NCBI GenBank assembly: GCA_010093605.1
Contig: MU004199.1
Location: forward strand, 1,313,533 to 1,377,532
Source of the DNA: Lophium mytilinum
Lineage: Eukaryota
Reading direction: 5' to 3'
DNA: 64,000 bases
Shown: in pieces, positions 1 to 41,417 of the stretch
Layout of the letters: each line of letters starts with the position of its first letter
Position numbering within the stretch: position 1 is the first letter of the stretch
The notes under the pieces: model-generated
What the model saw: the letters and a program-made list of their open reading frames with translations, nothing else
Databases searched by the model: none
What the model was told of the DNA's origin: nothing
Translations under genes and position numbers: made by a program

Positions 1-860
1 TATCTACTATTATATAGCTTGTGCTCCTAGAGTCTAATATATAATTAGCTTTATTATTAGGGGTATAATAGGATGCTAGAAATACCTTTACTTTAGCTGT
101 ATCTAGATCTATATTAAAATCTCCCTAATTATTAGGGTTAGATTTCTCTGTAATTAAGGATTCTTTCTTATCTTTTAGTAGTTTAAAATACTCTTTAGTT
201 CTAAACTATTTTAGTACCCTTTCTAGAAATAGATAGAAATAATCTTTTATAAGGTGCGTAGCTGTTTTACACTTCTTATAGTATTATTTTTCTATTCTAT
301 TCTTATTTTTAGGCACGAACTTTTTAGTTATATTAAATAGAGCCGTTTCATGCTCTTTAAACTCTTGTCTTCTTATTTTATCTATTAAATTAGAGAATAA
401 ATCATCTAATTTAATATTAGATGAATTTTCTCTATAGGATTATATAACCATTATTATAAAGCTATTATAGGGGTCTATTAGGTTATTTAAAACCCAGGCT
501 ATAATAATTTAATTTAGTAATTTAAGCTTTTTTACTTTTAATTAATCTATTAACTATTTTATCTTATTTAAGTAATCTTCTATAGTTGAAAACTTAGATA
601 AAATAGTATTAAACAGCTCCTTATAAATAAGGAATTTAGAACTAAAGCCCTTTAGGCTATATAGCTTCTTTAGTAGCTTTTAAGCTTCTTTTATAGTAGT
701 AGAATACTATAATTATAATAGAGGACTGTTCTCTATAGTAAGCCTAATAGTGGCTAATGCTTTTACATTATTTTCTGTATTAATAGGAGTAGTACTGCTA
801 ATAGCATTACTATAACTTTTTTCTACTAAGAGAGATTATACTCTTAGAGCCTAAACTTTG
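1..860 (-). mobile_element. RIP-degraded Ty1/Copia gag-protease relic (runs off window start)
   Basis: The reverse complement of 1-860 aligns by eye with ~1880-2336 joined to 5369-5781 of the + strand element, including the protease-like ILDSG remnant. Confidence 0.85.
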
Positions 861-5300: not shown

Positions 5301-5368
5301 GGGGGTAATATATAGAGAATAGAGGGGTAATATATAGAGAGAGGGGGGGTTATAAGTAAGCTCCTCCT
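2337..5368 (+). mobile_element. RIP-degraded Mutator-like (MULE) DNA transposon with ~127-bp TIRs
   Basis: TIRs at 2337-2463 and 5242-5368 (AG[A/G]AG[A/G]AGCTTACTTATAACCCCCCC...). Frame +1 from 3121 reads LDIILLNYIYKTNYFKILLL...IIDKELILKN...ILYK*YI*KNI, the RIP versions of the MULE motifs DCTYKTNR, ITDKELAL and LCxWHI. Confidence 0.88.
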
Positions 5369-7077
5369 TAAATTATATAATTTATTTTCTAATTTAATAG
5401 ATAAAGTAAAAAGATAAAAGTCTAAAGAGTATAAAACGGCTCTTTTTAATATAACTAAAAATCTTTTACCTAAAAATAAGAATAGAATAGAAAAATAATA
5501 TTATAAGAAGTATAAAATAACTACGCACCTTATAAAAATTATTTCTACCTATTTCTAGAAAGTAAACTAAAGTATTTTAGAACTAAAGAGTATTTAGAAC
5601 TACTAGAAGATAAGAAAGAATCCTTAATTATAGAGGAATCTAACCTTAATAATTAGGGAGATTTTAGTATAGATCTAGATGCAGCTAAAGTAAAAATATT
5701 TCTAGTATTCTATTATACCCCTATTAATAAAGCTATTTATATATTAGACTCTAGAAGTAAAGAGTTATATAATTATAGATAGAAAGCTAATTACTAGCTA
5801 TAAGAAGTAAGCTACTATATTAAATTAGAGAGGAAATAAAACTACTACTATAGAAGGAGTAGTAACTATATAATTAAAATTAAATAGGAATATATTTATA
5901 CTAGAAAATCGCCTTTTTATACCTTATTTTAGATATAATCTAATAACTATAAGTAAACTAGATTCTATAGAAATAAGCGTTATATTTAAAAATAAAACAG
6001 CTATTATATATAAGAATAATACTATACTAGTAATAGTAATACTTAAAAACTCTTTATACTATATAAATATAGAGAATATAATACTTTTTTTAAACTAAAT
6101 ATATAAATAGATAGATAAAAGCAATTTAGTAAATATATATATAAATAGAAAGAATCTATCTATTTAGTACTAAAGAATAACCTAAATAAGCTCTAGAAAG
6201 CTTAGTATACTATTAGGTATAATAAGAAAAGAACCTATATATTATAAAGCCTATAAAAATAGTAAGATAATAATAAATAAAAAAAAATAAGAAACTAATA
6301 GTAAAACTAAATTTCCTTTATAAAAAGTATTTATTAGATCTAGTAGGGCCTATAAATTTTTCTACTTTAGGGGATAATAAATATATTATTTTCTTTATAG
6401 ATATAGCTTTAAGATATATAGACTATAAGCTATTAGAATCTAAAGATAAAGTTTATAATGCCTTTATAGAATATAAAGCTAAGACTAAAAATATAGAAGA
6501 TAAAAGAAAAATATAATTCTTAAAATCTAATAATAGTAGAAAATATATAAATAAATATTTTAAAATAACTTTACTAAAGAGTAGAATAATCCATTAACTT
6601 TTAAGCCCTTATACGCCGGAATAGAATAGTTTAATAGAATGTATTAATTTTACTATATTTATTATAGTAAGAGCGTTATTATATATAGCTAATCTATCTT
6701 TTAATCTATAAGGGGAGGCTGTAAATGCGGCTATATATATATATAATAGAACGCCGCACTCTAGCTTAAAAGATAAAAAGCCTTTTAAGATATACTATAA
6801 AAGAAAAGCTAAAATAGATAATATAAATTTGTTTAGCTTTATAGCTTATAATAAGGTTAAAACGTAAATAACTAAGTTAGAACTAAGAGCTAAAAAGGCT
6901 ATATTATTAGGCTATAGTTAAATTGCGTATAGACTATTAGATTAAGAAACTAAAAAGATCTTTTAGGTAAGAGATATATCTATAATAGAAGGCTTCCTTA
7001 AGAAAAGAAATAAAAATAATATTAAGAAGAACCTCTTAGAGTAAATCTTTAATATAGAAGTACTAAAAAAATCTAGA

Positions 7078-7239
7078 AATAATAGATAAATAGATAAATA
7101 GATAAATAGATAAATAGATAAATAGATAAATAGATAAATAGATAAATAGATAAATAAATAAATAGATAAATNNNNNNNNNNNNNNNNNNNNNNNNNNAAT
7201 AGATAAATAGATAAATAGATAAATAGATAAATAGATAAC

Positions 7240-7273
<34 letters not shown>
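7078..7273. repeat. (AAATAGAT)n / (AGAT)n microsatellite spanning an N gap (7172-7197)
   Basis: Directly visible tandem units on both sides of 26 Ns. Confidence 0.95.
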
Positions 7274-7919
7274 CTACTTATCTAGTATATATTTTTCTTT
7301 TTTTTCTAGGTTTTTATAGTTATAGAGAGAAAAGGTATCTCTAAGAGATTTTAAAGATAAATTAAATAACTCTTATAGAGATATCTATAGATTAGTTTAT
7401 TCTCTTAAGCTTATAAAAGAGGAGAGCTTATAGCTTAGTATAAGTAAAAATTCTAGATTCTATACTATTACTCTCTAGGGTGCTCTTTTAAAGGTATAGA
7501 GTTAATATAAGAATAGATAGATAGATATATAGATAGAAATTATATTATATTAGTTCTATACTATATTAATAGAAATCTTCTATAGTTAGATATATACTAT
7601 ACCTTTAAGAAGCTAATCTCTATTACTTAATTCTTTTTTAAATATCTTAATTGTATATAGGGTATAAGTAGAAGGATGCATTTCTACTAATAGCACTACT
7701 GGTCATCATATATATATTGGCTGGCATGCGCAATAAGCTATTCCGCACAGCGTTTTGACCCCGCTTCGTCTGGAAGAGCGAAGCTTACACAACCTCTGTA
7801 AGGTACTTAGAAGAACTTGTATTAAACTCTGAGCACAGTCCGACCTCTAACGGGAGACATTTCAAGAGGGTTATTATGGTGTTCTAGTCATGTTGATGCT
7901 CTTCCCAAGCACAGCGCAA

Positions 7920-8798
7920 TCACTTAACCACAAGTCTCTCCAGCGTCTTGTCAACAATGGACAATAGCTCTGCGAGTTTGTTGGGGTCTCTCATCTGTGC
8001 TGGAACATCGTCTCTCGTCCTTGCGAGCGCCTCTCTGACAGCCTCAAACTTCTCTTCTCTCGCAGTGTATTCCCGTATGACTTCGCCTGTGGCGAACTCA
8101 ACATACACTCGTGTGTCCCTAATTCGGAAAAGGACATCGTCCAGCCGCATGAAGAACCGACATAGCAGCAGCATTCGTTCAGGCATGACCCGGGTTTTTA
8201 CCGATAGCATGGCGATGCCGTTGTCCGCCAATTCGTCTTCGTAAAGCATCACATCGTCAAAGAAGAGGATTGGATCAGGGCGCTTTAGTAGTTGTAGTGG
8301 GATGGGCGTTGTCGTAGGCTCGAACGAGGGGTTGGCTACGGGCGTGCTGCCTTTGTAGTCTGTGCTGTACGACCAGTCGAATGGTTTGACAACTTCCTTG
8401 ATATCTTCGAATTGCTTGGATCTGGTAGAGTATTAGTAAATTGAATGTCAAAGGTATTTCTTGCTACAGGGTGAGGAGAGTTACCGGTTCTGCTGCCACT
8501 CCTTCGAATATGACACCTTCAGCATAGCTTCTCCAGTCTTGTCGACGCGATCTAGCGCATCAAAGGCGTTGAACTCAATCTTCCAACTGGTCTCCTTGTG
8601 CTCCACAATCACGAGGTTGTCCCCAAATATCATTTCGGGAGGTGTGATGCCGAGCTTCTTGTTCATTTCTTCGATTGGGCCGGCCTTGAGAATGGGTAGC
8701 TTGCGCGTGGTGATCTTGAAGCCATGCCGCGTGATAGACGTATCCTCGTGGCCGGGGAGGTGTGTATCGACCGGGGCGCCATTGATGCTTGTCGCCAT
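7920..8798 (-). CDS. TIP41: TIP41-like PP2A/TAP42-interacting protein (2 exons, intron ~8422-8484)
   Basis: Motifs KLPILKA, PPEMIFGDN, PFDWSYSTDYKG, LYEDELADNGIAMLSVK and RFFMRLDDVLFRIRDTR; GT..CTAAT..AG intron. Confidence 0.93.
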
Positions 8799-9469
8799 GG
8801 CAGTGCTTCGCGACTGGAGCTCTGAGTGCACGACGGGTGTACTTGGGTGGATGATCAGGCCCCGCTGAGGATATAATGACAGTTCAACACCTTCTGGGGA
8901 GCCTAGAGAGCTATCAGGCGTGCCAAGAGTGCTGCATTACAAGAGCTAATGATATAACAGAGGACCTCATGCAGTGCTGGGAAAGTGTATACAGCCCTGA
9001 CAGCCACTTGCAGGTGATGTTTGATCGTGGTGGGGCAGTGAAGCACCCCGCCTCGAGCAAACTGTCAAGCTAACCATGTGTTCCACAAGCAGCCTCCATC
9101 GAACACGAGGAGATAATCCAAAGCCGTCTGGTGTAACCCAGAGAGCTATCAACTCTGCCAAAACTGGCATTCCTCCTGTCTTGAGAACATGCATGATGAC
9201 CTCAAGCGGTGCCTGTTAGGCGAACAGATGGAGCCATTTTCCTGATGCTTCAGGTCTATTTACGACTCACGAGCCCAATGTCTATCTCGTATATTATACA
9301 CGCAGCTGTTACTATGCCTCTGCAAAGACCGGGAACCCAGGCTAAGCCGTCTGCAAGCCTTGGAATAACCTGCGACAACGCCCAATTTTTTTCCAGAAGA
9401 GCGCTACCAGCACGTATGTAGTGTTGTGGGAAAGAAGCAGATTGGCGACCATTACATAACTCAATCGTT

Positions 9470-10491
9470 TCACTCTAGCTTCTTCATTAATCCACTCCTA
9501 ACCCGTGTATTGACGACTCCTCCGATTCCAAACGCGGGGACGATTCGACCCATGCGCGCGAGACAGCTTTTCGCCCAATCCTTGGTCACCTTAACAGCTC
9601 TTTCTCGCCACTCGGCCCGTTCCCTATTGTATAGATCAAGTCCAAGCAGATGTAGCGGCGTGCTGACCACCTGCAGGGCCGCCGGTGTGATTATCTGAGC
9701 AGCGCTTGCACTGCTAATGTACTTTTGAAGTGAATCGCCCATATACCGAGAGAGGTGCGGTGCTACGAGCGGAGGGAGGTTGAAGGAGGCGAATATGGTA
9801 AGGCTGTCTCTCAGGGCAAAAAGGGCGAACGTGGCCGTGGGCACAGGTCGCGGTGTCGAGTTCGCGGCGCCGAACATCTGGGTAAAGCGACTGTCCTTGT
9901 AGAGACATAGTGCAAGATTACTTGTGGATGTTGCGGCGAATTTGGGTAGACCTGCGGTTACAGTGGAGGCTGATTGGGCGCGCATGGTAGAAGAAGCCGA
10001 GTCGATCGAGTTGGCGGCCATATAGGTACCAAAGTAGAGAGACTACGGAAGGGTCAGCATACGAGCACTCCTGCGAGGCGAGCAGACGTACGAAGATCAA
10101 GGCGAACGGCTTCGAGAAGACGAAGCGCTGAGGTCGAAACAGGAGCTCCACAAATGAGCTCTTGAGGCTGCCCCCCAGTGTATTGCGGCCTGACGCATTC
10201 TCAATGATGCCTCTGCTCGCGGTCAAATCGAGAGGCTCAGTGTTTTCAGCACCCTGGATTGGGACCCTACCGGTCAATGATGGTGATCACAGGCGCGACG
10301 AGGAAGCCAGCTGCAGACGCGGCCGTCACGTCGGCGCAGATCCGAAGGCCAAGCTTGCGCGTATTCCAGGTGGAGGCATCCGGTGTGCCAGCTTGTTTAA
10401 TCGTCCCTGCGAGTGCTTCAGGACTCCAGTCCTTCGTGGATGACGGGGTCTCCGGCGGTAGTCCCGCTGATCGAGAGCGATCCTCTCGCAT
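9470..10491 (-). CDS. Conserved fungal mitochondrial-carrier-like membrane protein (3 exons)
   Basis: Spliced ORFs ADVTAASAAGFLVAPVITIIDR / GIIENASG...SKPFALIF / FALRDSLTIFASF...STPLHLLGLDLYNR...RIVPAFGIGGVVN have hydrophobic helices and a carrier-like pattern. Function uncertain. Confidence 0.75.
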
Positions 10492-10821
10492 TGTTACCTC
10501 CTCTTTCCCAGGTTGAGAATGCTGTGAGGGTGCATGTGGACGGTATGGCTATGGCGAAGAAACCATAGGAAGCTGGCTGACGGCCAGGCTGGTGGCTGGC
10601 TACTCAAAGTCTTTCCAAGCTTGCCAGTAGTCTGGCGTCACAGCGTCGTCGAGAGCACTGCTGCAATTGGCCATGGTTAAGCCGATGGAGGCCGACTTCG
10701 ACGGCACTGTGACGGTCAGAAATGAGTGTCAGTGGTTTATGTCACCAAAATCTTGCTTCAAAGTCTGCATGGTCCAGTAGAGTCTTTGGTGTAATTCGTG
10801 CAACGTGATATATTTCGAAGC

Positions 10822-12795
10822 TCATATCGTCAAGATGCCTTCTTCAGGTGTGTGGACGAGCCAGTTCTCCCAAAATCGCAGACCGTCCAAGCCTTGCTCA
10901 CGACAGAGCGCTCCTCGCTCCTCTGCCATTTCGAGCTCTTCGCTCGCCACTCCAACGCTCCACCCAAACCTCTCTGCCACCTCCTGTGCGGTTACGCCTC
11001 GCCCATACAACCGCCAGTCCCAAGTAACTTCAGATGCTGGTGGCTGGTGATGCAGTTCTCGGAGCCATGAGAGGAGGGCAGCAACCGTCTTCTCGTCTGT
11101 TCGATCTCGCCCTTGCACAACAAGGAGACCGCTTTTGAACATTCGCAGCCGGACAGGCAGCTTGAGCTTGTCCCACAGCCGGGCAGCTTTCTCGAAGTCC
11201 GTCGGACTTACTAACTCCACTCCGCCTCTTGCACGATTGAACACAGCCCACAGGTCTACGAGAGTCATGATGCCGCCTTCTCTTTTGAGGATGCCTCTTG
11301 TATCGTCTGTGAGCCATTCCGCTAGATTCCTAGATAGTTCCGACACGTATAGCAAGTCGGAGCCGGATCCAAGCATGTCTTTCGTCGTGACTAGACCAAG
11401 CGCAGACGCCGATTGCGAGAGAATAGAGCTTGCTTCCGAGCTGCCGTTGGTTCCCAAGTTGGCTTGCGACGCGAAAGACTCTGCTAACGCAATGATTTCT
11501 TTTGCAGATGTCATGAGGGCTTCGAGATCTTCGAAGGCGGTTCCGATGACAAGCTCGTTATTTTTCCTTCGTTCTAGACCTCTTCGTTCGAGGCCTGCAA
11601 TGCCAACGACCTTTTGACGTTCGGGGTCTCGGGGGTTCTGGTCAGAACTCGAATTGTATCCATCGTCGAACGCCCCAGAGAGTCGATTAGGCTTCGGCAC
11701 TGGCGGTGCACTCTGAAGAAGCCATTTCCGTTGTACTAAAGCGTTTTTAAGTCGCTCGAAAAACACCTTCTCTCCTCCTCCGCGGAATGAGAACTTGACG
11801 CTCTCCACTGCCTCGTCTTGCATTGATAACCTAGAAAGGGCAGGCCCGGGGCTCTCAGACCTGGCAATCCCTTTTGCTGATGCTAACCGCTTGTCTTCTA
11901 TTGATACCAACGACGCACCGCAGATCTCACAGGTGAGCAAAGACGGATGGTTTTGAAATGTGCATCGAGGGCATGGGAATGCGGCAGATGAAGCGCTAGG
12001 ACCGAGGGGATTCCTTGAACCCGAAGCCGACGACAAATCTGTCTTGTCTTGATGCGCTCTCTGCGGTATCGGTGCTACTACGTGTGATTGTCTGTTGGTA
12101 ATTGAAGATATCGCCGCCTTCACCACGTGAACTAGCGGCGGCTTGATGCCGCACGCGAGACATGGCGGCAAGGGAGTATGGACATTCGCGGTGGCGGGGT
12201 CGAAGTTTGATGGAACAGGATTTGAAAAGGAGCAGATGGGGCAAATCCAGGTGGCGCTGGCCGCGGTCGAAGGCGCAGGAGAAGATGCAAGAGACCGCAA
12301 GGGACTGCCATGTCTCTCTGGGGGCGTAGAGCTAGAGCTACTTGAAATGGTGCGACCAGCGGCAGTAGAAGGGCTCCTTGTGGAAAACGAGAGCCGTTTG
12401 GAGGGTTTCGGGTGGAAAGTCACCTTCGGGGAGGACTTGAGGAACCCGGCCTACAGTGTCTTAGCAAGAGTATTCACACACTCAGAAGGCTGTCTCACAT
12501 AATACTCAGGACGTTCGACATCCTTGAGGTTTATTGCCACGGAGCACTTCCTTGGTTCTTCGTTGTCTACATAGCAGGCCCGGTGTGAAGTCAAGTACGC
12601 ATGGCCATTCTGGAACTGGGGTATCTTGAATCTCCTACAGCAAGCTCGAGTTAGCACTGCAGTGGCCAGTCGCTCTTAGAACATAGCGACTCACCCCTCG
12701 TACAGCCCAACAGCATCCTGCACGAATAGTAGGGTCTCTTCAGGGAGCAGAGAGGGGCGCAAGGCAGTTGTGAGGTCAAGCTGGTGGAGAAACAT
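10822..12795 (-). CDS. VPS36: ESCRT-II subunit Vps36 (split GLUE domain, two NZF zinc fingers, EAP30 winged helices)
   Basis: Start MFLHQLDLTTALRPSLLPEETLLFVQDAVGLYEG; GHAYLTSHRACYVD; WICPICSFSN and FPCPRCTFQNHP zinc fingers; AFEDLEALM. Two short introns near the 5' end. Confidence 0.93.
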
Positions 12796-13153
12796 TCAGG
12801 ACATGGGGTTTGAAGGAGCGTCGACCACGCAGAGGTCACAGTCTCTCTAGATCGGCGCCCACTGTAGCAGACCTTCGTGGTATGTCAAGGTTAATGATGT
12901 TGGTGATGCGCTGCGGGACGGGACCCGCCAATCCTGATGTTCAAGGGTTCTGTCCACGTGATCAATGCGCTAACACCACCTCACAGCCGTCCGCCTCACC
13001 GTCTCTCCTGCAACCTCCATCTTCCGTCTCCCATTCACCATCTTCCACTCTTCATAGTGTGCTGCCCCTCTCCCTTCCTTTCTACCATAGTTCCTCTGAC
13101 CCCCAGTGCCATCAACTCACAGCCGCAGCGCTCCTGTATCGCTCCCTGCGGCC

Positions 13154-14825
13154 ATGCTATCCACATCCTCCGGGTCGTGGCACCAGCACCCATCTACCGC
13201 AACCGCTGCCTACAACGCCGTACCCGCCCGACGCACACTCAACCAGCCCGGACCCACTCATGTGAGTCTGCTGCACCCTCTTGACGGAGAAATGCATGCT
13301 GAACGCCGCCTGCAGCCGCAAATGGCTCAACCACAACCCGTCCAAAAGAACAAGGTCGACTGGTCCAAGGCAGTCCGTGATTACGTGCAGCGTGCGTTCG
13401 CACAAGAGAACAATGTTGCAGGCGTGTCGCGAGAGGAAGTTCAAGAAAAACTGAAACAAGTCATCACCGCGGTCGCTGAGAAGGGGATGATGGACGACGT
13501 GGACTGGGCGAGCCATCCCCTCCCCCAGCAGTTCGTGCTGCAAGACAGGCGGAGGGCCTTGGGCGTAGACGGGCAGCAGAACGCTTGGCCCACTCCCGCG
13601 TCGCATCTCGCTGACCCGCTGCATGGACACACTAACAATGCATCATTATCTCCCTCCAAGAAACGCAAGTCTACCGATGCATCGCTGACCGACCACCCCG
13701 ACGACTCGCAACCGCCCTGGAGGAAGACTAACAGCCGCAACATGTTCGAAGACCGCATCACGTACGCCAACCAAGGCCAGGCCAATCGTGTCGACAAGAA
13801 ACAGCGCAAGAACAAGGAGAAAGACAATTTCATCAATAGTAAGTTTTCGCCAGCCGAGTTGGAGAAGAGACGGCAGCGATTTGGCAATATCTCCACAGAC
13901 GTCACCCCTCCTTGGGCATCGCCTCGAACCGACGACGCTGAAGCCAGGTCTGGTCCTGTGGTTGGCACATGCCAACAATTGGAAAAACGTTACTTCCGCT
14001 TGACCGCACCCCCGAAGCCCGAAACCGTCCGCCCTCTGCCCGTACTAGAGCAAACGCTGGCACTTCTGAAAAAGAAGTGGCGAGAGGAGAAGAACTACGG
14101 CTACATCTGTGACCAGTTCAAGTCTTTGCGACAGGACCTGACTGTCCAACACATCAGGAGCGCGTTCACCGTTGATGTGTATGAAATCCACGCCAGGATT
14201 GCCCTCGAAAAGGGGGATTTGGGTGAGTATAATCAGTGCCAGACACAGCTACGCGCACTGTATTCGCAGAACCTGGGAGGGCATCCAGAGGAGTTCCTGG
14301 CTTATCGTATCCTCTATTTCATTCACACGTGCAACCGGACCGACATGAACGACATGTTGGCAGACTTAACCCCTACAGATAAGAACGACCACGCGGTCAA
14401 GCACGCACTGGCAGTCCGCTCTGCGCTGGCTTTGGGCAACTACCATAGGTTTTTCAGACTATATATTGACTATCCCAATCTGGGGGGCAATTTGATGGAC
14501 AAATTCGTTGATCGCGAGCGTGTCGCCGCTCTCGCTAATATGTGCAAAGCGTTAGTATTACGTTTTTTATCTCTGTTCTGGTATTAATGCAGTCTGCTAA
14601 CGAATTTCCAGGTATAAACCCTTTGTCAAGCTAAGCTTCCTCTCTTTCGAACTCGGGTTTGAATCCGATCGTGCTTGTCTCGATTTCCTCGTCCAAAAGC
14701 AAGCGCAGCACTTGATCCAAGATACGGATGGAGAACTCTGTTTCCAAACGGGCAAAGCTGGACTTCTGTTCGACCAGCTACGAGCCCAAGCATTCGCCAA
14801 AGTAGACATTAAAGGACAGATATAA
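13154..14825 (+). CDS. THP3: SAC3/GANP-family PCI protein, THP3/LENG8-like
   Basis: VVGTCQQLEKRYFRLT, YICDQFKSLRQDLTVQ, VYEIHARIALEKGDLGEYNQCQTQL; last exon after the intron at ~14551-14611 ends VDIKGQI*. Start codon uncertain. Confidence 0.88.
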
Positions 14826-31496: not shown

Positions 31497-32149
31497 AGTC
31501 TCGTTGTCAACGAATCGGAGCGCGAGTAAGGTCAGCTACCTATCGAGATGGAGCTTTGTTTCACGAAGGTCGTATGGGGTCGGCCTGCGAGATACATCCA
31601 GAACCCTGCTATGAGACCTGGCTAAGGTACTGGTCATAGCTGCGAAGACCCTATCTGGAGATTTCGAAGACGGCGATAAGACCGAGGGCTCAATACTGTT
31701 CTGATTATTTTCCCTCGATCTTTACGAAGTCTCGCGATGCACCGACTCTCAAGTGGTCGTCTTAGCACACGATTTCCGTGCACAGTCTCCAGAAGTTGGG
31801 CGATAGCTGGAGAAAATCTCCGCTATTCGCAGCAGTAGTTCTATTCTGAAGTTAAATTCAATTCTTTAAACACCAAGTATGTGCCAATAAAATCTACCGT
31901 GTAATGAAACCCTAACACTGCGTGAAACTTAGTGCAATGAGTAATGTAGCTTGCTTCCCCAAAGGGGATGATAAGCGCTAGTTCGGATTAGTGCTGGCGT
32001 ATTTTTGAATGTTTTACAAGTTGGTGTCCGTTTCAGCCTTCGGTGCCTTCTTCTATGCAAACGGGGTATTGATCCGTCAGATCACTGGACTAAGAACGCA
32101 CATATCATCGCAAAACTCTGGAGAAATTCAGAGAGCTACAAGTCGAAAA

Positions 32150-35100
32150 ATGGCAGTCAACGACGGTCGGGGATCTCTTACCGAGGACGAGTGGGGATTT
32201 TCGACTCCCTCCAACGATGCGGCAGATCAGCCTCCGAAAACTTCTCAACATAGCCTCAATGAAGATGACTGGGGCTTCCCAACTAACAACACTGGCGATA
32301 CATCACCAAAGCCTGACACTCATTCTGCAGAAGAAGACGAATGGGGGTTTCCTATTGACAACAAGGGCGAGGCTACATCAAAGCCAGGCGAGCCATCCGT
32401 AGACGAAGACGAATGGGGATTTGCAATTGATCAAGCAAACGCAGCCACCGTGAACGACGCATCTGATCTCCTGAAAAAATGGGGTCTCGACTCTGAGCCT
32501 ACTTCTCCCACCGGCGCCCCCAACGTCAGCGACGACCTTGCCGGAGCCGCTGAATCCCTTTTCGAAGGTTGGAAAACCGCGACTAGAACTGGAAATATCG
32601 GCACCTCACTATCGACCTTCATTACGATCCTGTCAAGCCTCGATATTTCTGGCCCAGAACACCTTCTCATCCGCAGTCTAAAGCAAAGGGCCGTCAAAAT
32701 AGGCCAAGGCTCCCAATTCAGCGTCTTCTTTGACAATTCTCCCATCGGCGAAGATGACGGCAAGGGAAATATCACCCAAAGGAAAGGCAGAGTGGTCAAG
32801 CGCGTCCGAATTTCAAAAATGGCGCTGAGTAGTGAAGAGGAGTTGGGGTTCAATGAGCAGTATTTACAGACACTTCGGCATTTAGAACTTGAGGTCCTCA
32901 GTCTGGGGTTGTTGCGACATCGGAACATTGTACGGTTACTGAGCTGGGGATACGATTACCAGGATCGGTATACGCCTATCCCGGTTTTATTCATGGAAGC
33001 TGCGCTTGCACCCCTGGATGAGTTTCTGTCATTGGAGAAGAAGAGCGAGGGCCTACTGGTGGCGTTGGGTGTTAAGAGGTGGGATGTCAAGTACCACTTT
33101 GCGCTTGATGTCGCGGCGGGGCTCGAGGCGATACACAGTTTGAACATTGTGCATGGAGATGTTAAGCCTGAGAACGTCTTAGTGTTTCGGAACGATGATC
33201 CAAAGGTTCCTTACGTGGCGAAGCTCAGCGACTTTGGAGTATGTGTGGATATGAGAATCGATGGGCAGAAAGTCACGCCGGAATCCTACCTTGGGACTAG
33301 CTCGTGGACTGGCAGCGAGGTTGGGATCGGACAATGGAACGATGAGACGCATGGAATCTTTACGCAGGAGCTGTTGAAAAAGTTCGATTCGTACAGCTTT
33401 GGGTTGACGTTGCTTTCGATAATGGGGGCTTATGGCGGGTTGCCTCCGATTACAAAAGAGCCGGGGCTGGGGAGAGGATTCGGACTATTAAAGGAGATCG
33501 AAAATTCACTGAAAGAGGCCAAGGGATGCCCCGAAGGCATCTTAACTCAAGTCAAGGCAGCATCAAAAAAGCTTCTGGCCATCAAGCCGTGCGAACGTCC
33601 ACTCCCGTCTCCGATTCTACTGCGAACCGATCTTCCGGCCTACGTAGATTGGCTTCAAGTAAGTACGTCGGTGCAGCAAACACAGCAAAGGAAGCGCAAC
33701 GGCCATGCGTATTGGTTTTCTCTCGATATACATGTTCTCAGATCTCTAGACCAGCAGTATACACAGCAAGAGAAACGGGGAAAGTCTAGTGGGTTTAGTG
33801 GCGAATCTCTTTTCGGAATGGCGGAAGCTTGCTCGCAGCAACCAACTGACGGATCCGCCGACAAGATACTGAACTTTCTCCTTGCATCAGCGGAGAAAGG
33901 TTACACTCCTGCAAGAGCGATTTGTGCAAAGGTGTATGAGGCATTTGATCGTCAATTAGACGTTGATGAAAAGACGTTGACGCACTGGGAAAGCGAGGCT
34001 GTGGCAGATGGCTTCATGTTTTATCGCCATCCATTTCTAGAAGAAGAGAGGCATGAAGGACAGCGACAACTTTTTAGGAGAAACGGTGGCTACTGCGACG
34101 ACCCTTTTCTGAGCATGGCCCCAATCCTCGCAACAGCACGAGACCTGAATAGGCTCACAATCTGGCTTTCCAAATTCAGCATCGATTCTGCTGTGGATTC
34201 CATCGGAAATACCATTATGCATGTCTGTGCTGCTCTCGGGGAGGTTGACTCCGTCAGGCTTTTATTAGACAGATCAAAAGCGGACCTTTTCAACGAGAAC
34301 GAGGAGACGCCGCTCTACAAAGCCTGCCAGGCCGGCCACACGGCTGTCGTCCAGCTGCTTCTTCGTAACGGTCATCGAGCAACCCCTACCAAGGATATGA
34401 ATGTTTCCCCATTGCACTGGCTTTTCAACTTTCCCGAATCAGATATTCAGCAAATTGCGGAAGCTATGGTCAAGAGCGGAGGAGCTGATGTCAGCCATAT
34501 GATCAAGCCGCCAAGATATTACGAGAACGCGTCAAAGTATCTCATGAAGCATTTTCCCTTCGAATTTCCACTTGGTACCCCTTTCCACTGGGCGGCATTT
34601 GCGAGAAACAGAACCGCACTAGACGTTCTTCTAAGCCTCGGAGCTAAGATTGACGCTACCTATGATAACGGGAATCATGGAACAACACCTCTTGCTCAAG
34701 CCGTGTGTACCGAAGATGCGCCTTTAGTTGCCTACCTCCTCGAAAGAGGTACCGACACTTCCGTCAACAACAAAGAAGGCCGAAATCCCCTCCATCTAAT
34801 GAGCCTAGGCGCCGGGAATGAGAACCCACTATCTTCGACGAAATGGGATACTTGGGTTAGACACGGAAATTGGAGAAACAGCGTTCAATCTGCAAAAGAC
34901 GTAGTGCAGCTTCTAGTCCATGCAGGTGTCGATATCGAGGCCCGAGCGACTGGATACGGGAAACGCACGCCCCTACTAATGGCTTCCGACCCGATCTACA
35001 TGAAGGAGCACGTCGTTCAAGCACTCTTAGAGGAAGGTGCGAATGCGGACGCGCAGATGGATAGGTCGGATTTCAATGTACTGCACCTCTGGTGCACGGC

Positions 35101-36328
35101 TGACCCGAGTCTGCTACGGTATCCCCACGTCTTCAAGGACTTCTTTGCGTACATCATCGAAAAAGTCAATAACCTGGACTGTCAAGCAGGTGCAATGGAG
35201 GAAACCGTCCTTCACCAGATGGTTAAGACGCAAATGCCTGCAGAGAAACTGTTTGAGTACATTGAACTTCTCTTTGCAGATCCGAAGCACAGTCCAAATA
35301 TGAACGCGAGGAACCGGGACGGGAATACGCCGCTCATGGTAGCTTGTCTGGGGCTCCCAGAAGGCATAGTAGAGAGGATCGGATTCCTTCTCAAACGTGG
35401 AGCGCAGCCCAGTCTCATGAACAACTACCAAGAGAACTTCATCCTGCGTCTCGTGGAAAACTACACCCTCATGGATGCGGATACTCTCTCAGCTTTGCAA
35501 CTCCTATTTTCCCACGAGTCTCTCACGCCAGAAGTTCTCCAAAAGTTCATCAAAGAAACAAGTTTGACGGCTTTGACAGAATGTGCTTCGCAAGGCCGCA
35601 TGAAAACCCTGTCCTACCTTCTTCAACTCGGCATGCGCAACAGGGTCAACGAAACGGTTACGGTGCGACGGACAGTGAAAACCGTTTTGGATGAAGCATT
35701 TTTCTCGGCAAACTCGGCACGGTTCATATACATCCGCAATGCAAGTGACCTCCTTACCAAGGAAGAAATCGAGGAAGCCGAGCAAAAGAACCACCTTTAT
35801 ACATCCGACTCGGGCGTTGTAAACCGCTATGGCGGAGCTTCCGCCGCAAGAGCAAAGGAATCTTACTGGGCCTATCCGGAGATTTTTGCGCTGCTTCAAT
35901 CTCATGGTGCGGTGCGAATACAACAGGCCGAGCATAGAGGTCCGTCGTGGAGAGACGCGATTGATCTTCCGGTATTGGGGATGACGAAGAACACGCAACC
36001 AAACCTCGATCACTGGAGGCCGCTGTACGACCTAGAGGAGCTGGAGGATGGATGGGAAGAAGCTGCGTACGAAGAGTTCATGGATAGCTATTCATATCTT
36101 AGCGAGGAGGATCTTGCGACATTGGAAGTTCCTATTTTGGCCTTTGAGCGATGGCCAAAGCTCGTGGAAATGCTAAGTGCGAAGAATGGTTGGTACCGCG
36201 GGGTTCTTAGAGATGGGAGGAGTGTTGAGGTCAAGATGATGGCAAAGGGGCAGGGCGGGATAGAGCAGGTGAGAGACTTGAAAGGCAGGACGTTGAATGT
36301 GAAGGAGATTCTTGAGCGAGGATACTAA
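32150..36328 (+). CDS. Ser/Thr protein kinase with Sel1-like segment and ankyrin repeats, intronless (~1392 aa)
   Basis: Kinase motifs IGQGSQFSV, VVKR, HRNIVRLL, IVHGDVKPENVL, KLSDFG, DSYSFG. Sel1-like LASAEKGYTPA. Multiple ankyrin repeats (GNTIMH, ETPLYKA, GTPFHWAA, GTTPLAQA, RNPLHL, RTPLLMA, GNTPLMVA). ORF is open from 32009. Confidence 0.92.
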   Translation: MAVNDGRGSLTEDEWGFSTPSNDAADQPPKTSQHSLNEDDWGFPTNNTGDTSPKPDTHSAEEDEWGFPIDNKGEATSKPGEPSVDEDEWGFAIDQANAATVNDASDLLKKWGLDSEPTSPTGAPNVSDDLAGAAESLFEGWKTATRTGNIGTSLSTFITILSSLDISGPEHLLIRSLKQRAVKIGQGSQFSVFFDNSPIGEDDGKGNITQRKGRVVKRVRISKMALSSEEELGFNEQYLQTLRHLELEVLSLGLLRHRNIVRLLSWGYDYQDRYTPIPVLFMEAALAPLDEFLSLEKKSEGLLVALGVKRWDVKYHFALDVAAGLEAIHSLNIVHGDVKPENVLVFRNDDPKVPYVAKLSDFGVCVDMRIDGQKVTPESYLGTSSWTGSEVGIGQWNDETHGIFTQELLKKFDSYSFGLTLLSIMGAYGGLPPITKEPGLGRGFGLLKEIENSLKEAKGCPEGILTQVKAASKKLLAIKPCERPLPSPILLRTDLPAYVDWLQVSTSVQQTQQRKRNGHAYWFSLDIHVLRSLDQQYTQQEKRGKSSGFSGESLFGMAEACSQQPTDGSADKILNFLLASAEKGYTPARAICAKVYEAFDRQLDVDEKTLTHWESEAVADGFMFYRHPFLEEERHEGQRQLFRRNGGYCDDPFLSMAPILATARDLNRLTIWLSKFSIDSAVDSIGNTIMHVCAALGEVDSVRLLLDRSKADLFNENEETPLYKACQAGHTAVVQLLLRNGHRATPTKDMNVSPLHWLFNFPESDIQQIAEAMVKSGGADVSHMIKPPRYYENASKYLMKHFPFEFPLGTPFHWAAFARNRTALDVLLSLGAKIDATYDNGNHGTTPLAQAVCTEDAPLVAYLLERGTDTSVNNKEGRNPLHLMSLGAGNENPLSSTKWDTWVRHGNWRNSVQSAKDVVQLLVHAGVDIEARATGYGKRTPLLMASDPIYMKEHVVQALLEEGANADAQMDRSDFNVLHLWCTADPSLLRYPHVFKDFFAYIIEKVNNLDCQAGAMEETVLHQMVKTQMPAEKLFEYIELLFADPKHSPNMNARNRDGNTPLMVACLGLPEGIVERIGFLLKRGAQPSLMNNYQENFILRLVENYTLMDADTLSALQLLFSHESLTPEVLQKFIKETSLTALTECASQGRMKTLSYLLQLGMRNRVNETVTVRRTVKTVLDEAFFSANSARFIYIRNASDLLTKEEIEEAEQKNHLYTSDSGVVNRYGGASAARAKESYWAYPEIFALLQSHGAVRIQQAEHRGPSWRDAIDLPVLGMTKNTQPNLDHWRPLYDLEELEDGWEEAAYEEFMDSYSYLSEEDLATLEVPILAFERWPKLVEMLSAKNGWYRGVLRDGRSVEVKMMAKGQGGIEQVRDLKGRTLNVKEILERGY

Positions 36329-36355
36329 GGTAGATTTATCTTCGCATACAGTCCT

Positions 36356-37996
36356 CTATAGTTTGCTCCCCTTTGACAACGCATCTACCACTTGCTTACG
36401 AAAATCAATCGAGAGCTCCACTGCATCTTCTTGGCTCTCATTCGGTCTCCAAGATAGGCATTTCTGAACAACACCAGCGTAGCCCTCTCCCATTTCTTGT
36501 TTCAACTCCGAGCCGGCCGCCAATTGTCCGATCATTCCACTCACGCGCTGGAAAAGAGTATGTTGCTGCGTCGAGTCAATCCGCGGGTTCTTCTCCAGCG
36601 GTCTCGCAAACACAGTAGACATAGTCTTCCATAAGCCGATTTCAAGCAGCAAAACTCCCAGAGAGTAGATGTCATGCTCATTCGAGAATTTGTGCGTTGG
36701 TTTCCCGAAGCGTTGCTGGTGATGGTACAGATTTGGCTCCAGGTCGAAAAGCTCGTGAAGAGAAGTTGAGGCTTCGAGCGGCCGAGCGACGTCCCAGCCG
36801 ACAAGGTAAGGGAGCTTTTCTAGATCATTGGATGAACCGGGAAGCATCAAAACGCTCCGGGAGCAAATGTTTTTGTGAACCCAGCCGGAAGTATGGATAG
36901 TCAGGAGCGTGGCGGCTAAGGCGCGCGCCGTGCGAAATCGGCCTCCTAGGGTCAGCTTTGGCCTTCCCACAATCAGAGCGTGGAGGGTTGGTGTTTCCTC
37001 AGTGCCCAAAAGAACCTGAGGTGAACGGTAGAGAAGAAGGCTTCGATTCTTGCTAGGCTCGTCTAGAAAACCTAGGCAGCTGAGAGTGTGCATACGATAT
37101 CCCTCTTCAGCGTCCTGCTTTGACAGATCCGAGTCGACCGGGCCCTGAAGTAGCCATGTGAGCCTTCTGAGGGGTTCTTTGAGTGCTTTGGCCCCATCGT
37201 AGTCGCGCTCGCTCGTAGCAAGCGCTATTGCGTCGTCGTACTGCCGGATTTCGACAATGACATCCATAGAATCGAAGCCCGACTTATCTTCGTAGACACC
37301 ACGTAGGAGCTCTTGTTTAGGTTTCAAGATAACGGGATCTTTCATGTCTCCATCTAGCGCATCGTAGTTCTCGGGTGGCTGAGAATGCACTCTGATCTGC
37401 CTCTCCGACACCTCCTTGACACCGAGGTCTACGGCCTGCGAGCTGGCAGCGAAACCTGGGGTCGAATTTCCAACCAGCAGCAAGATAATTGAGAGCGTCT
37501 GCCGCAGTCGATCCGTCCACTCGGTGTAGTGCAGGAGGAGCGCTTCCATCGCTTCTTTCCCGAATAGCGCCCATTCCAAGGGGGAGGCTTTCTTTCTCCA
37601 GGTCTGGCACCGTGTCCTCATACCGTTGCCAAATTTCCACTTTTTCTTGGCTCCCGCGTCCATATCCTTTGCATCTCCCGCTATCTCCGGTACGACGCCT
37701 GCAAACTTCGATGCCTCAACTCGATACGCGCCTAACGCTTGGCTTAGCGCATCAAGGCAATGCTGAACATCTCTTTTCACACTATCCCGGACTCTGGAAT
37801 CACGTAGAAGACCGCGCTCCTCACCAAAACAGACGTCGGTGAAGGTTTCGACGAAGACAAGTTCGTGCTCTAGCCGCTCGGAGATGTCGCGTTTGGCGGA
37901 GCCATACTCCTTGATCTCGGCTGTAACTTCGCGAATAAAGACTGTAGTTTCGTAGATTAGAGAAATAATCTCTAGAGAGGTGCTGAAAAGATCCAT
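36356..37996 (-). CDS. HeLo-like (prion-inhibition-type) N-terminal domain plus pseudokinase, intronless (546 aa)
   Basis: Amphipathic N-terminal helix MDLFSTSLEIISLIYETTVFI and LEWALFGKEAMEALL...WTDRL helical bundle. Kinase-like C-lobe GWVHKNICSRSV (no catalytic Asp), LVGWDVAR (no DFG), HDIYSLGVLLLEIGLW. Confidence 0.85.
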   Translation of the reverse strand: MDLFSTSLEIISLIYETTVFIREVTAEIKEYGSAKRDISERLEHELVFVETFTDVCFGEERGLLRDSRVRDSVKRDVQHCLDALSQALGAYRVEASKFAGVVPEIAGDAKDMDAGAKKKWKFGNGMRTRCQTWRKKASPLEWALFGKEAMEALLLHYTEWTDRLRQTLSIILLLVGNSTPGFAASSQAVDLGVKEVSERQIRVHSQPPENYDALDGDMKDPVILKPKQELLRGVYEDKSGFDSMDVIVEIRQYDDAIALATSERDYDGAKALKEPLRRLTWLLQGPVDSDLSKQDAEEGYRMHTLSCLGFLDEPSKNRSLLLYRSPQVLLGTEETPTLHALIVGRPKLTLGGRFRTARALAATLLTIHTSGWVHKNICSRSVLMLPGSSNDLEKLPYLVGWDVARPLEASTSLHELFDLEPNLYHHQQRFGKPTHKFSNEHDIYSLGVLLLEIGLWKTMSTVFARPLEKNPRIDSTQQHTLFQRVSGMIGQLAAGSELKQEMGEGYAGVVQKCLSWRPNESQEDAVELSIDFRKQVVDALSKGSKL

Positions 37997-39157
37997 GCTT
38001 GGAGAAATTGTGTGGCGGAATGCTGATGACTGGATATGTGCGGCTGAAGTAGCGGAAAAGTTATACTTACACCTTTTGGCCCCCACTCTACCCCGCACCA
38101 GCTGGGCCTTTCAATCAGTTACTTCGGACAAGGAAGAAGCAAGAAGAGTAGCTGGCTTGAGTGAAACTGCAAGGATTGGTACCCAACACGCCCACGTAAA
38201 CCTATCTTCAGGATCCACAACAGGCAACCACTCTGAAAACTACTTTTTGTCAAGCGTCAATGCACGCCCCTATCGTCTGTCGAACTGAAACTGGGCAAAA
38301 GAGATAACTCTCTGGTCAATTTGATTCCTCTCACATCTCGAGCCTAAACCTTAATAATATGGGTAAGGTCACGCAGATATCAGCACGGAACATAACTACA
38401 GCCGTGTATCTAGGAGCCAAGCCAAAAGCCATAAACGTTGTATTGAGAGCCGCAACGAATGGACATGTCGAGTTATCGAATATGTCAACAATTCAAGACT
38501 CTTGTTTTCAGACACGCGAGATCAAGAATGGACGATTTGGAAAGTATAGGTGAATCGGGTAAGTATTCCGTCACGTGACGGAATCCTGCCTTGACCTCTC
38601 CAGCCTCTCGGCCAACGCGACGCAGACAACGCCCCCGGCAAAAATAATTTGCAGGCTCGTGTTCTTGGTATCGAAAGACGCTGGATGTGGATGCATCTCG
38701 CTACACAAGGTGATGGAGCCCTTTGAAAATCGACAATTGGCCTTGGCGTGTACCCAGGATACACGTGCGCGCCCGAAAGCGGCTATGGCGTTCAGGGGAG
38801 CCTCCGAGCTCGCTTCCTCATGCCAGCCTTGCACGCCTCAAGTCTCGCCCGAAGCCATGCTGATTTCCACTAGGATAGGCCAAGAATTCCGGCCATCTAG
38901 ATGCCATCCACATGCTCATTATTCGATGGGTAGATTGCGGATGTATGAGAATGGACTGTTATCGGCGCCATTACTTTCAGTGGCGTGCGTAGGGGAGCAG
39001 AAGCGCAGAAAACAAATTCACAGTACGGAGCAGTCGCTGTCTAGTCTCAAACACTCGAACATCTTCTCTAACTTTTGTTTACTTCCAGTTGCTCACTCGC
39101 TTCGTCGATTCGTCATTCTTTTGGCTTCTTTTTTGTTTTGTCTCTCGTTAAAGCAAC

Positions 39158-41417
39158 ATGAAACTCACTATCTGGACGTCATTCCTTACAGTCGCCCTTG
39201 TCGCGGCATCCCCTCTTTATGATCTCGAAGAGCGTGACCAGGAACATCCCGAATGCCACCCCTCTTCATGCTGTGTTCGTGGATGGGAGACCCAGTATGG
39301 AGGTGCTACTTACTGGAGCAGTCAGGACAAGAAGTACCGCACTAAAGAAGCATGTGGGCGCCACTGTGCTGCGGATGGACGGTGCCAAACGTATTCCATT
39401 GAGAAGAACAGCTGCCGCCATTACAAATCTTCGCTGTAAGAGGACTGTATCTCGTGTTATTGAGCTGGGTCTAATGTTACCTAGTGATAGAGTTATGCAC
39501 CGCTCAAAGGGTGGTCATCGAGACTTCTACGACAGATGCTGCGCTGGAACAGAGCATCATCCCAAGCCGACGCCGAAGCCGTATTCTCGCCCTGTAACGG
39601 CGTCGACACCCAAGCCCAGTGACTCCACGAGGAAAACTTCCGCCCACTCAACCCTGAAGTCTTCCAGCGCCTTGACGAAGAAGCCTTGCAGCAGCTCCAC
39701 CCTAAAGACATCCAGCATCTCAACGAAGAAGCCCTGCAGCAGCTCCATCTTGACGAGTTTCAGCGCGTCTAAGAGGCCTTCCGGCAGTTCTTCAAAGCCT
39801 TGCTCCACCGAGTCCCCACCTGCTAGCAGATATTCCAGCTCTGCTAGGCCCAGCTCAACACTACCTGCTTACCAAACATCTTCTTCGCTCGTTACATCGA
39901 CCAGATACGCACCAAGCAGTCACAGTTCTAACACGCCGTCTTTTACGCCTTTTTCATTGTCTCCAACATCTTCAGAGGCGCCTTATTCGACACCTGAGCC
40001 ATCTTCCTCGATAACTTCAGACATTGTCTCTTCCGTCTTTTCAGCGGCTCCTTCCTCGACCTCAGATGCTATTTCATCAACGTCATCTCAGATAATTTCT
40101 TCGACGCCCGAGGTTCAGTCTCCAACGACTCTGGAGACATCCTCATCAACGCTGTCAGAGAATGCCTTCTCTACCTCAGTGGCTGCTTCTCTGTCTTCCA
40201 CGTCCGACGCGTTCTCATCTACTTCTTCAGAAACTGTCTCTTTAATATATGAGACCTCCTCTTCGATACCCGAGAAACCGTCTTCAACATCTTCATACAC
40301 TGCTTCGTCAACATCGGATGCTGCTTACTCTACTTCTTCAGAGACCCCTTCTTCTACAACATCTGAGATTCTCTCATCAACATCTACTGATACTCCTTCC
40401 TCAACCTTAGAATTGATTTCGTCGACATCTTCCGAAGCTATATCCTCAACCTCCGATGCATTCTCTTCAACCTCCTCAGAGGCACCATCCCCAACGTCGG
40501 TCGACTGTCTCTCAACAACAACAACTTCAGATGCTAGTTCTCCAACTTCTACGGAAGATTTTTCCCCAACCTCGGAGATTGCTTCCCCAACTTCAGAGAT
40601 TTCTTCCACGTCCTCCGAGGTTTCGTCTTCAACATCTTCAGATGCGGTTTCCTCGACCTCAGTTGAAGGTCCTTCCTCCACCTCGGACTGCTCAACGTCT
40701 TCCAAGGTTCCGTCTTCAACCTCCGAGATTGTTTTCCCAATTTCAGAGACTTTTTCCACGTCCTTCGATGTTCCATCTGCAACATCTTCAGACGCTGTTT
40801 CGTCGACCTCGGCTGAAGCTCCCTCTTCAACTTCAGATTGCTCAACGCCTTCAGAAGTACCGTCCTCAACCTCAGAGATTGTATCCCAGACCTCATCGGA
40901 GACGTCAAGTCCATCTTCCACGATCGAGTCATCCACCACGCTCGAGCTATCAACCACAACCACGCCCTGTTCGAGCGAAACACCAGCATTCACTCTATCG
41001 TCCACGGACAATCCTGAATCTACACTCCCAAGCAGCACTACGGAGACCGCATCATCCACAAGCGACTCATCCAGTACTCCCTTCTTTACACCCACACCAA
41101 CACCAACACCCAGTCCAACTCCAACGCCAACTCCGAGCAGCTCGGCCCCCGCAGCGCCTGCACCAACCTGTGCAGTTCAAGGCAGCCTCAGATCTGGAAT
41201 CACCTACACGAACATTGCGGGCCAGAGCTTTGCTGGTTGCAAAACCCGGTGTCAGACCTACACCCTCGCTGGTCGTTCCTGCCGCGTATACGGTTTCAAT
41301 TCCTCGACTCTTGTCTGCACGTTGTCGCTAGGATTCGGGGCCCCAACGTTTGACATTGCGTTTACACCGAACACTTCTGGGGTGCTGACCTGGTATGATG
41401 CTACCTGCGCATTGTAG
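39158..41417 (+). CDS. Secreted mucin-like protein with N- and C-terminal PAN/Apple-like Cys domains (intron ~39436-39491)
   Basis: Signal peptide MKLTIWTSFLTVALVAA; EACGRHCAADGRCQTYSI...C; long S/T/E stalk; GCKTRCQ...CRVYGFNSSTLVCTL; no GPI-type hydrophobic tail. Confidence 0.8.

Follow-up and report, generated by a model that had tools for sequence, protein, structure and literature searches.

A linked kinase-ankyrin and HeLo-pseudokinase gene pair

In the 64,000-nucleotide stretch of Lophium mytilinum DNA analysed here (GCA_010093605.1, contig MU004199.1, positions 1,313,533 to 1,377,532; hereafter the window), two convergent genes encode a non-RD Ser/Thr kinase followed by ankyrin (ANK) repeats (gene A) and a protein that joins a HeLo-type helical domain to an MLKL-like pseudokinase (gene B). 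The two gene families show conserved linkage and co-divergence. We put at about even the chance that they form a conserved ascomycete two-gene module, in which a competent HGD kinase-ANK protein would, on receiving a cue, phosphorylate an MLKL-type executioner and release its HeLo domain, with a necroptosis-like outcome that involves neither a NOD-like receptor (NLR) nor an amyloid. An earlier note on this DNA, made from the sequence alone, had proposed a module of this kind.

The pairing recurs in other genomes

Metagenome contigs were scanned with an alignment of the gene B family, and the 80 loci recovered fell into 62 groups at 90% nucleotide identity. A tblastn search with pieces of gene A detected, in 28 of these groups, a kinase that lies outside the B gene itself. 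A hidden Markov model (HMM) was then built from the neighbouring kinases, with a score of at least 100 bits defining an A-type kinase. It placed an A-type HGD kinase in 25 of the 62 groups, the sequences used for training scoring high by construction. Two loci among the 28, L040 and L075, were set aside as having no A-type partner: the neighbour at L040 is a TTK/Mps1-like housekeeping kinase, and at L075 the kinase domain lies in the same open reading frame (ORF) as the pseudokinase. In the partner kinases the catalytic loop reads HGD, or HAD in two cases, and the DFG motif is kept except for one DYG. They share a pre-kinase motif with gene A, and across 24 of their sequences the catalytic residues H, D, K, N, D and G do not vary.

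When the count was confined to groups in which the B relative is flanked on each side by 3 kb or more, an A-type kinase was present in 15 of 20, and a divergent or split kinase-repeat gene in 2 more. One of these, L004, has two divergent Pkinase+ANK genes head-to-head with the HeLo-pseudokinase gene (L004:3633-9043, minus strand), which tblastn had missed; in the other, L042, an HGD kinase gene with tetratricopeptide repeats (TPR) is split over two ORFs. At L059 the pseudokinase is fused behind a kinase domain. The recurrent adjacency of kinase-ANK and HeLo-pseudokinase genes that the earlier note had anticipated is thus found in these well-flanked loci. Most partnerless groups are short contigs; of the 16 partnerless HeLo-type groups, an upstream stretch of 3 kb is available for just three, L004, L039 and L045.

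Downstream of the kinase domain, Pfam recognised ANK repeats in 17 groups, or 18 if L004 is counted, and TPR in L078 and L042; it recognised no repeat in 7 groups, in 4 of which the gene runs off the contig. A partner was found in 13 of 29 HeLo-type groups. The orientation in these 13 loci is head-to-head in 11, with 372-1134 bp between the detected domains, tail-to-tail in 1 (L009, of the same subfamily as the window pair) and tandem in 1 (L027). Two loci deserve a separate remark. The two consecutive Pkinase+ankyrin genes of L004 may be a duplicated sensor kinase. At L039 the HeLo-pseudokinase gene (8870-10849) lies ∼2.3 kb from a DDE transposase ORF (13120-14361), and a partner may have been lost there by rearrangement.

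Could genes A and B lie side by side by chance and be functionally unrelated? The tail-to-tail layout of the window pair, as opposed to the commonest head-to-head layout, and the truly unrelated TTK/Mps1-like kinase beside the B relative at L040 would both fit such an accident. Fungal genomes of 30-40 Mb hold ∼100-200 kinases, so that only ∼0.02-0.03 kinases are expected by chance within +/-3 kb, whereas the same HGD kinase family recurs in 15 of the 20 well-flanked loci, with the divergent or split genes of L004 and L042 in addition. The layout is also shared by L009, and a single locus, L007, is the nearest to both window proteins. On the linkage in 15 of 20 loci and the co-variation described below, we rejected chance adjacency, to which we grant scarcely any probability.

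The two families diverged together

Distances between kinases were compared with distances between pseudokinases in 22 loci plus the window; L029, L031 and L071, whose kinase domains are partial or split, were left out. The two distance sets were strongly correlated (Mantel r 0.795, 23 pairs), with none of 5000 permutations reaching this r. The nearest neighbour was identical for kinase and pseudokinase in 16 of the 23 pairs, and L007 was the nearest locus for both window proteins.

The best named homologues of the window proteins are from Dothideomycetes, e.g., Trematosphaeria, Lindgomyces and Mytilinidion. At L006/L007 the kinase gene shares 83% identity with a gene A homologue from Penicillium arizonense and stands head-to-head with a gene matching Pfam HeLo (5e-9) and DUF7580. 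The L006/L007 pair is therefore Penicillium-like, and the pair occurs, in different orientations, in relatives of both Dothideomycetes and Eurotiales. In Trematosphaeria pertusa and Dendryphion nanum, homologues of A and B lie on contigs of equal size, a comparison of contig sizes and not of gene spacing.

Gene B combines a HeLo-type domain with an MLKL-like pseudokinase

The search with gene B gave 83 homologues, and over its full length the protein aligns with a large family, which comprises 2690 clusters at 50% identity (E <= 1e-30). Its nearest ESM Atlas clusters are mainly from Ascomycota, although Atlas taxa do not define the range of the family. Among 30 aligned members, Pfam HeLo was matched by 15 (best E 8.5e-32) and DUF7580 by 22 (E <= 0.01). 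The N-terminal part of the family profile also matched the HET-S HeLo domain (2wvo, E 3.5e-3, residues 25-194). Judged by transitive homology and not by its own score, gene B is a divergent HeLo member.

The best solved match of the whole family profile was the MLKL pseudokinase 6vbz (E 7.1e-10), then 4m68 and 4btf, with IRAK4 (E 4e-6) behind MLKL. The family motifs HKN...GW[DE] align to HGN/HRN...GFE of MLKL. An AlphaFold2 model of gene B (predicted local distance difference test, pLDDT, 82.6; predicted template modelling score, pTM, 0.84) had full-length mouse MLKL (4btf) as its top Foldseek match, with E 8.8e-8 over 548 columns; the plant protein AtMLKL3 (6ka4) ranked sixth, over 634 columns at 11% identity. 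Profile and model alike point to gene B being kin to MLKL, and the profile also to its being kin to the HeLo family.

The kinase fold had been described in the earlier note as lacking the catalytic Asp and DFG, and both substitutions (HKN and GWD) were borne out; in addition, the beta3-Lys column of gene B holds Arg. Among the 30 family members the catalytic loop reads HKN in 18, HKD in 5 and otherwise in 7; the catalytic Asp survives in 5, DFG is present in none, and the beta3 position is R in 18, H in 9 and K in 3. With HKN, GWD and no beta3 Lys, the pseudokinase domain of gene B is predicted to be incapable of catalysis. Loop 405-414 aligns with the Ser/Thr-rich TSIS/SIS loop of MLKL, and Ser or Thr occurs in this segment in the 17 closest family members, as read by eye and not as a strictly aligned column. 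The protein ends within the kinase fold.

When residues 1-205 were modelled alone, the pLDDT was 78.9. The model of the N-terminal domain has long helices at 3-26, 34-57, 71-98 and 147-175, and the mean Kyte-Doolittle value is +0.92 for residues 1-22 vs. -0.34 for the whole protein. A HeLo-like N-terminus had been claimed for gene B. The claim stood on family sequence, through the Pfam matches of half the aligned members and the HET-S profile match, and it gained nothing from the domain-only Foldseek search considered below. Such fold searches gave no informative match, so the HeLo assignment rests on sequence and not on fold.

Gene A encodes a non-RD kinase with conserved ankyrin repeats

We found 46 homologues of gene A. 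Pfam Pkinase was matched at residues 243-425 (E 3.3e-16), and five Pfam ankyrin families were matched (best, Ank_2, E 7.7e-32, in 5 stretches), as expected from the many ankyrin repeats first noticed in the sequence. H335, D337, K339 and N342 (HGDVKPEN) and D361-F362-G363 are invariant in 27 aligned homologues; beta3 K217 (VVK) is at least 90% conserved in the same set, and G185/G187 of the G-loop and the alphaC Glu E248 are invariant or at least 90% conserved. The intact kinase (HGD, DFG, VVK) that had been read from the letters is therefore conserved across homologues. The catalytic loop is HGD in 33 of 34 homologues; with HGD in place of HRD, gene A is a non-RD kinase. It has the catalytic residues of an active eukaryotic protein kinase and is predicted to be catalytically competent.

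The best solved-structure matches of the gene A kinase were Roco4 and LRRK2 (E 1e-8 to 7e-7), and a chain named 'ScRIPK' by its depositors was matched at E 2.6e-6. The A-type family profile, when run against the PDB, matched ULK, MLK1, Roco4, LRRK2 and IRAK4 below TTK, this top match being an artefact of the unrelated Mps1-like L040 kinase in the alignment. A profile of full-length gene A homologues was dominated by ankyrin proteins. No chain of RIPK1-4 was among the top 60 solved matches of either the single kinase sequence or the family profile, so 'RIPK-like' is for gene A an analogy and not a family assignment. Of the proposed RIPK/MLKL-like character, the MLKL half was upheld by the profile (7.1e-10) and Foldseek (4btf) matches of gene B, and the RIPK half found no support in the sequence. 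A simple pattern for the RHIM core, [IV]Q[IVLC]G, found no match in protein A or B, and neither did one for PP-like motifs.

The acidic N-terminus of gene A carries [ED][ED][ED]WGF motifs. Three or four copies, with number and spacing kept, are found in the Dothideomycete-type orthologues P0085-P0088 (51-80% identical), and the motifs are missing from 16 Aspergillus/Penicillium-type homologues. No DNA tandem repeat was found in the EDEWGF region. In this disordered N-terminus the motifs look like short linear docking motifs. The Mytilinidion resinicola homologue P0085 (1694 aa, 80% identical) has ∼300 extra N-terminal residues, its motifs being shifted by +302; the gene model may be a merged one. 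From this species, no B homologue was among the matches listed. Between kinase and ankyrin repeats the earlier note had placed a Sel1-like segment. Pfam gave no Sel1 match there at E <= 1, so that label was not borne out; the linker itself is conserved in homologues.

Identity to 4 close and 16 distant homologues was 0.59/0.34 in the ankyrin region vs. 0.70/0.40 in the kinase, and no high-identity internal repeats were found in the ankyrin region. The region looks like a binder of a conserved partner rather than a hypervariable sensor array. The proposal that the ankyrins sense a non-self or pathogen cue accordingly lost ground, the region being nearly as conserved as the kinase.

The same data bear on whether the genes are an allorecognition (heterokaryon incompatibility) pair, in which mismatched A and B alleles would kill upon cell fusion. 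According to the accessible part of a 2025 review (PMC12881547), closely linked pairs of death genes with HeLo-type effectors are a typical feature of incompatibility systems in fungi. However, gene A is conserved over its whole length between fungal classes, ankyrin region included, the high-identity internal repeats are missing, and the pair is ancient and widespread. We consider this explanation improbable.

A possible mechanism and its alternatives

In the mechanism that we favour, the ankyrin (or TPR) region of gene A would be the likely input or binding domain, receiving a cue or partner and thereby activating the kinase. The HeLo-family bundle of gene B would be held in check by its pseudokinase domain. 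Kinase A would bind this pseudokinase and phosphorylate the flexible, Ser/Thr-bearing activation loop, whereupon the HeLo domain could be released, oligomerise at the membrane and damage it. The outcome would be necroptosis-like death or a danger response without an NLR or amyloid relay. In its fullest form, this proposal is that ascomycetes have an ancient, widespread NLR- and amyloid-independent necroptosis-like gene pair in which an ANK/TPR non-RD kinase directly phosphorylates an MLKL-homologous HeLo-pseudokinase, DUF7580 being the fungal MLKL pseudokinase domain; we advance that form tentatively, as somewhat short of an even chance.

Several results weigh against this reading. (i) At the well-flanked loci L039 and L045 no kinase lies within ∼10 kb of the HeLo-pseudokinase gene, and in five groups the distance to the partner is 5.6-7.2 kb. 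(ii) Shared species history contributes to the co-variation, which therefore shows joint inheritance and not necessarily co-adaptation. (iii) Gene B itself scores under the Pfam cut-offs, both for DUF7580 (PF24476; 19.1 bits, E 1.1e-3, cut-off 27 bits) and for HeLo (PF14479; 12.3 bits, E 0.14, cut-off 23.2 bits), although full-length homologues of B exceed the HeLo cut-off. (iv) A Foldseek search restricted to the N-terminal domain of B yielded nothing at E <= 0.001 (best 0.25), and the VIA-align Z scores of this domain, 7.5/6.8 with the MLKL four-helix bundle (4HB), 7.4 with HET-S and 8.1-10.1 with plant coiled-coil (CC) domains, are within helical-bundle noise. (v) The kinase family of gene A is not RIPK-like by sequence, and its conserved ankyrin region makes a rapidly evolving pathogen sensor unlikely. 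(vi) Every biochemical step, namely phosphorylation of B by A, an ankyrin ligand and killing by B, is one that we infer. (vii) The RNA nature of the public run that covers both genes, described below, is a guess.

The module may be real and follow a different logic, in which the B pseudokinase serves kinase A as an allosteric partner, a scaffold or a decoy, such that B guards or holds A and phosphorylation of B is not the trigger. Comparable arrangements include STRAD-LKB1, the ZAR1-RKS1 pseudokinase adaptor and plant tandem-kinase receptors. In six loci (L035, L042, L048, L059, L075 and L078) and one Aspergillus protein (P0130), a DUF7580 pseudokinase is fused behind an active Pkinase in one ORF, which argues that the DUF7580 domain works in cis with kinases; L042 and L078 have, besides the tandem kinase-pseudokinase, an upstream HGD kinase+TPR gene. 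Linkage and co-variation would fit any physical partnership. A search for longer fused forms of B gave 3 matches, none of them fused to an A-type kinase-ANK protein, which is weak evidence. On the other side, B keeps the full MLKL plan, with a loop that aligns with the MLKL phosphosite region, and the 24 partner kinase sequences keep every catalytic residue, an invariance that argues for selection on catalysis. We judge a partnership of this kind, the strongest of the alternatives, unlikely, while leaving it an appreciable share of the probability.

A further possibility is that the module serves non-lethal signalling, e.g., in membrane stress or development, and that the HeLo-type domain is a membrane-targeting device only. 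The orthologues of gene A are conserved across classes and look single-copy, which fits a physiological role, and the window neighbours are ordinary housekeeping genes. Against a harmless role, the HeLo, HELL and 4HB domains characterised to date act on membranes in cell death, as far as the accessible text of PMC12881547 goes, and the large expansion of the B family resembles that of immune-type families. We hold non-lethal signalling to be distinctly unlikely.

Comparison with known systems

The proposed activation of B by A resembles RIPK3 acting on MLKL in that an active kinase is paired with a protein that has a membrane-acting helical bundle at its N-terminus and a pseudokinase at its C-terminus, and MLKL tops both the sequence matches among solved structures and the fold matches of the whole B model. 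HKN aligns with HGN/HRN, and GWD (GFE in some B-family members) with GFE of MLKL. In contrast to RIPK3, kinase A is not a RIPK by sequence, has no RHIM-core motif and carries ankyrin repeats. The A/B-type genes are moreover physically linked and mostly share a divergent promoter region; to our knowledge, RIPK3 and MLKL are not linked in such a manner. RIPK4 and ANKK1, which like LRRK2 and Roco4 are TKL kinases, have a kinase followed by ankyrin repeats, as does gene A. Gene A has no Roc-COR, leucine-rich repeat (LRR) or WD40 domains, and its likeness to LRRK2 and Roco4, the best solved matches of its kinase, is confined to the kinase fold.

Outside animals, the plant MLKLs (AtMLKL1-3 and wheat Pm13) share the architecture of a HeLo/4HB domain and a pseudokinase. 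In contrast to the fungal pair, the abstracts consulted mention no linked upstream kinase gene, and the Foldseek identity of AtMLKL3 to B is as low as given above. In HET-S/NWD2 and HELLP/PNT1, a HeLo-family effector is encoded beside its presumed activator, which has ANK/TPR-type repeats (PMC12881547, accessible part). Activator A differs in having a kinase instead of NACHT/NB-ARC, and effector B ends in a pseudokinase and not in a prion-forming motif, no PP- or RHIM-like motif being found in it by simple patterns. The fungal gasdermin/protease clusters likewise join a pore-forming executioner to an ANK/TPR/WD40-fused enzyme that would activate it by modification (same source and portion). 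The modification in the A/B pair would be phosphorylation of a pseudokinase and not proteolysis, and the executioner fold differs.

That MLKL homologues exist in fungi is stated in the accessible part of PMC11476962, and the accessible part of the 2025 review treats the stimuli and the wider HeLo/4HB repertoire as open questions. That part of the review describes no kinase-repeat partner, and an A/B-like pair is not mentioned in the accessible text of PMC9815663 and its preprint, of PMC10197012 or of PMC12258605. A full-text literature search, which reached neither subscription-only papers nor the supplements of preprints, turned up no publication on a gene pair of the kinase-ANK/HeLo-pseudokinase type, nor any in which the name 'DUF7580' occurs. 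The HeLo/HELL-kinase architecture of B is already in print, and it is the conserved pairing with an HGD kinase-ANK/TPR gene that appears to be new.

Activation of fungal HeLo/4HB effectors is known only for the NLR-amyloid route, and A/B would, if the proposed mechanism is right, be a second, phosphorylation-based route. Gene A would then be the first upstream kinase proposed for an MLKL-like protein outside animals, and the RIPK3-MLKL logic, in which a kinase unlocks a pseudokinase-guarded pore former, would exist in fungi in a directly testable form. The pair would be a compact two-gene system that could be moved to yeast or Podospora to probe MLKL-type activation logic. A likely role would also be assigned to Pfam DUF7580, behind which stand thousands of uncharacterised fungal proteins.

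Locus layout and transcription

ORF A (1392 aa from the start at 32150; 1439 aa from an upstream in-frame ATG at 32009) and ORF B converge as the earlier note had it, with 27 bp between their stop codons (Table 1; the end coordinates of both ORFs include the stop codons). One contig of one public run, with a depth of 149, spans 32020-38361, and thus genes A and B, without a skip. The same contig has a 51-nt GT..AG skip at 38361-38413, just outside the two genes, which suggests that the run is RNA. If so, both genes are transcribed and neither has a spliced intron, in keeping with the intronless genes described from the letters. The region shows signs of transcription. Since the first base of this transcript-like contig is 32020, we preferred 32150 as the start of gene A and rejected 32009.

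Table 1. Features of the A/B pair in the window and of tandem kinase-pseudokinase ORFs in metagenome loci
Feature	Position	Strand	Basis or detail
Gene A, non-RD Ser/Thr kinase + ankyrin repeats, 1392 aa, no intron seen	32150..36328	+	ORF, Pfam, homologues, transcript-like contig
Acidic N-terminal region of A, four [ED][ED][ED]WGF motifs, residues 12-91	32183..32422	+	motif positions 12, 38, 62, 86
Pre-kinase motif (LSxFxxIL..GP) + kinase domain of A, residues ∼152-495	32603..33634	+	G-loop GQGSQF, K217, HGD 335-337, DFG 361-363
Conserved helical linker of A, residues ∼501-680	33650..34189	+	homologue identity 0.60/0.30; tblastn matches in 7 loci
Ankyrin-repeat region of A, residues ∼681-1200	34190..35749	+	Pfam Ank_2, 5 stretches
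C-terminal region of A, residues 1201-1392	35750..36325	+	similar only in L005-L007; no Pfam family
Spacer between stop codons of A and B, 27 bp	36329..36355		ORF coordinates
Gene B, HeLo-type helical domain + MLKL-like pseudokinase, 546 aa, no intron seen	36356..37996	-	ORF, homologues, AlphaFold2, Foldseek
HeLo-type N-terminal helical bundle of B, residues 1-205, hydrophobic first helix	37382..37996	-	family Pfam, profile, model
Pseudokinase domain of B (Pfam DUF7580 region), residues ∼225-546	36359..37324	-	Pfam, family profile
HKN replacing catalytic HRD, residues 374-376 (WVHKNI)	36869..36877	-	aligns to MLKL HGN/HRN
GWD replacing DFG, residues 400-402 (LVGWDVAR)	36791..36799	-	aligns to MLKL GFE
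Flexible activation-loop segment RPLEASTSLH of B, residues 405-414, putative phospho-acceptor	36755..36784	-	pLDDT < 50
Tandem kinase-pseudokinase ORF	L035:3-2936		also TPR
Tandem kinase-pseudokinase ORF	L042:8402-10702		
Tandem kinase-pseudokinase ORF	L048:1108-3399		
Tandem kinase-pseudokinase ORF	L059:8531-10717		
Tandem kinase-pseudokinase ORF	L075:20-2878		
Tandem kinase-pseudokinase ORF	L078:8447-10867		

Other features of the window

No NACHT or NB-ARC domain was found by Pfam in A or B, neither protein has a Walker A motif, and no NLR is encoded by the 17 other long ORFs of the window that were scanned, which agrees with the NLR-free locus originally proposed. The products of these ORFs are ordinary proteins, e.g., Vps36, SAC3, PX-PB1, OPT, SMC, CobW and a fungal transcription factor. 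At the left end of the window (1-8000), a block of ∼8 kb at 24% G+C abuts sequence of 50-56% G+C and looks like an AT-rich repeat region, possibly degraded by repeat-induced point mutation (RIP). On the plus strand, the GT..AG intron at 38361-38413 sits upstream of a 732-aa ORF (39219-41417) that is extremely rich in Ser, Thr and Pro, with many 'SSTSxxxSS' near-repeats, a Cys-containing C-terminal end and no Pfam family; it may encode a mucin-like wall or secreted protein.

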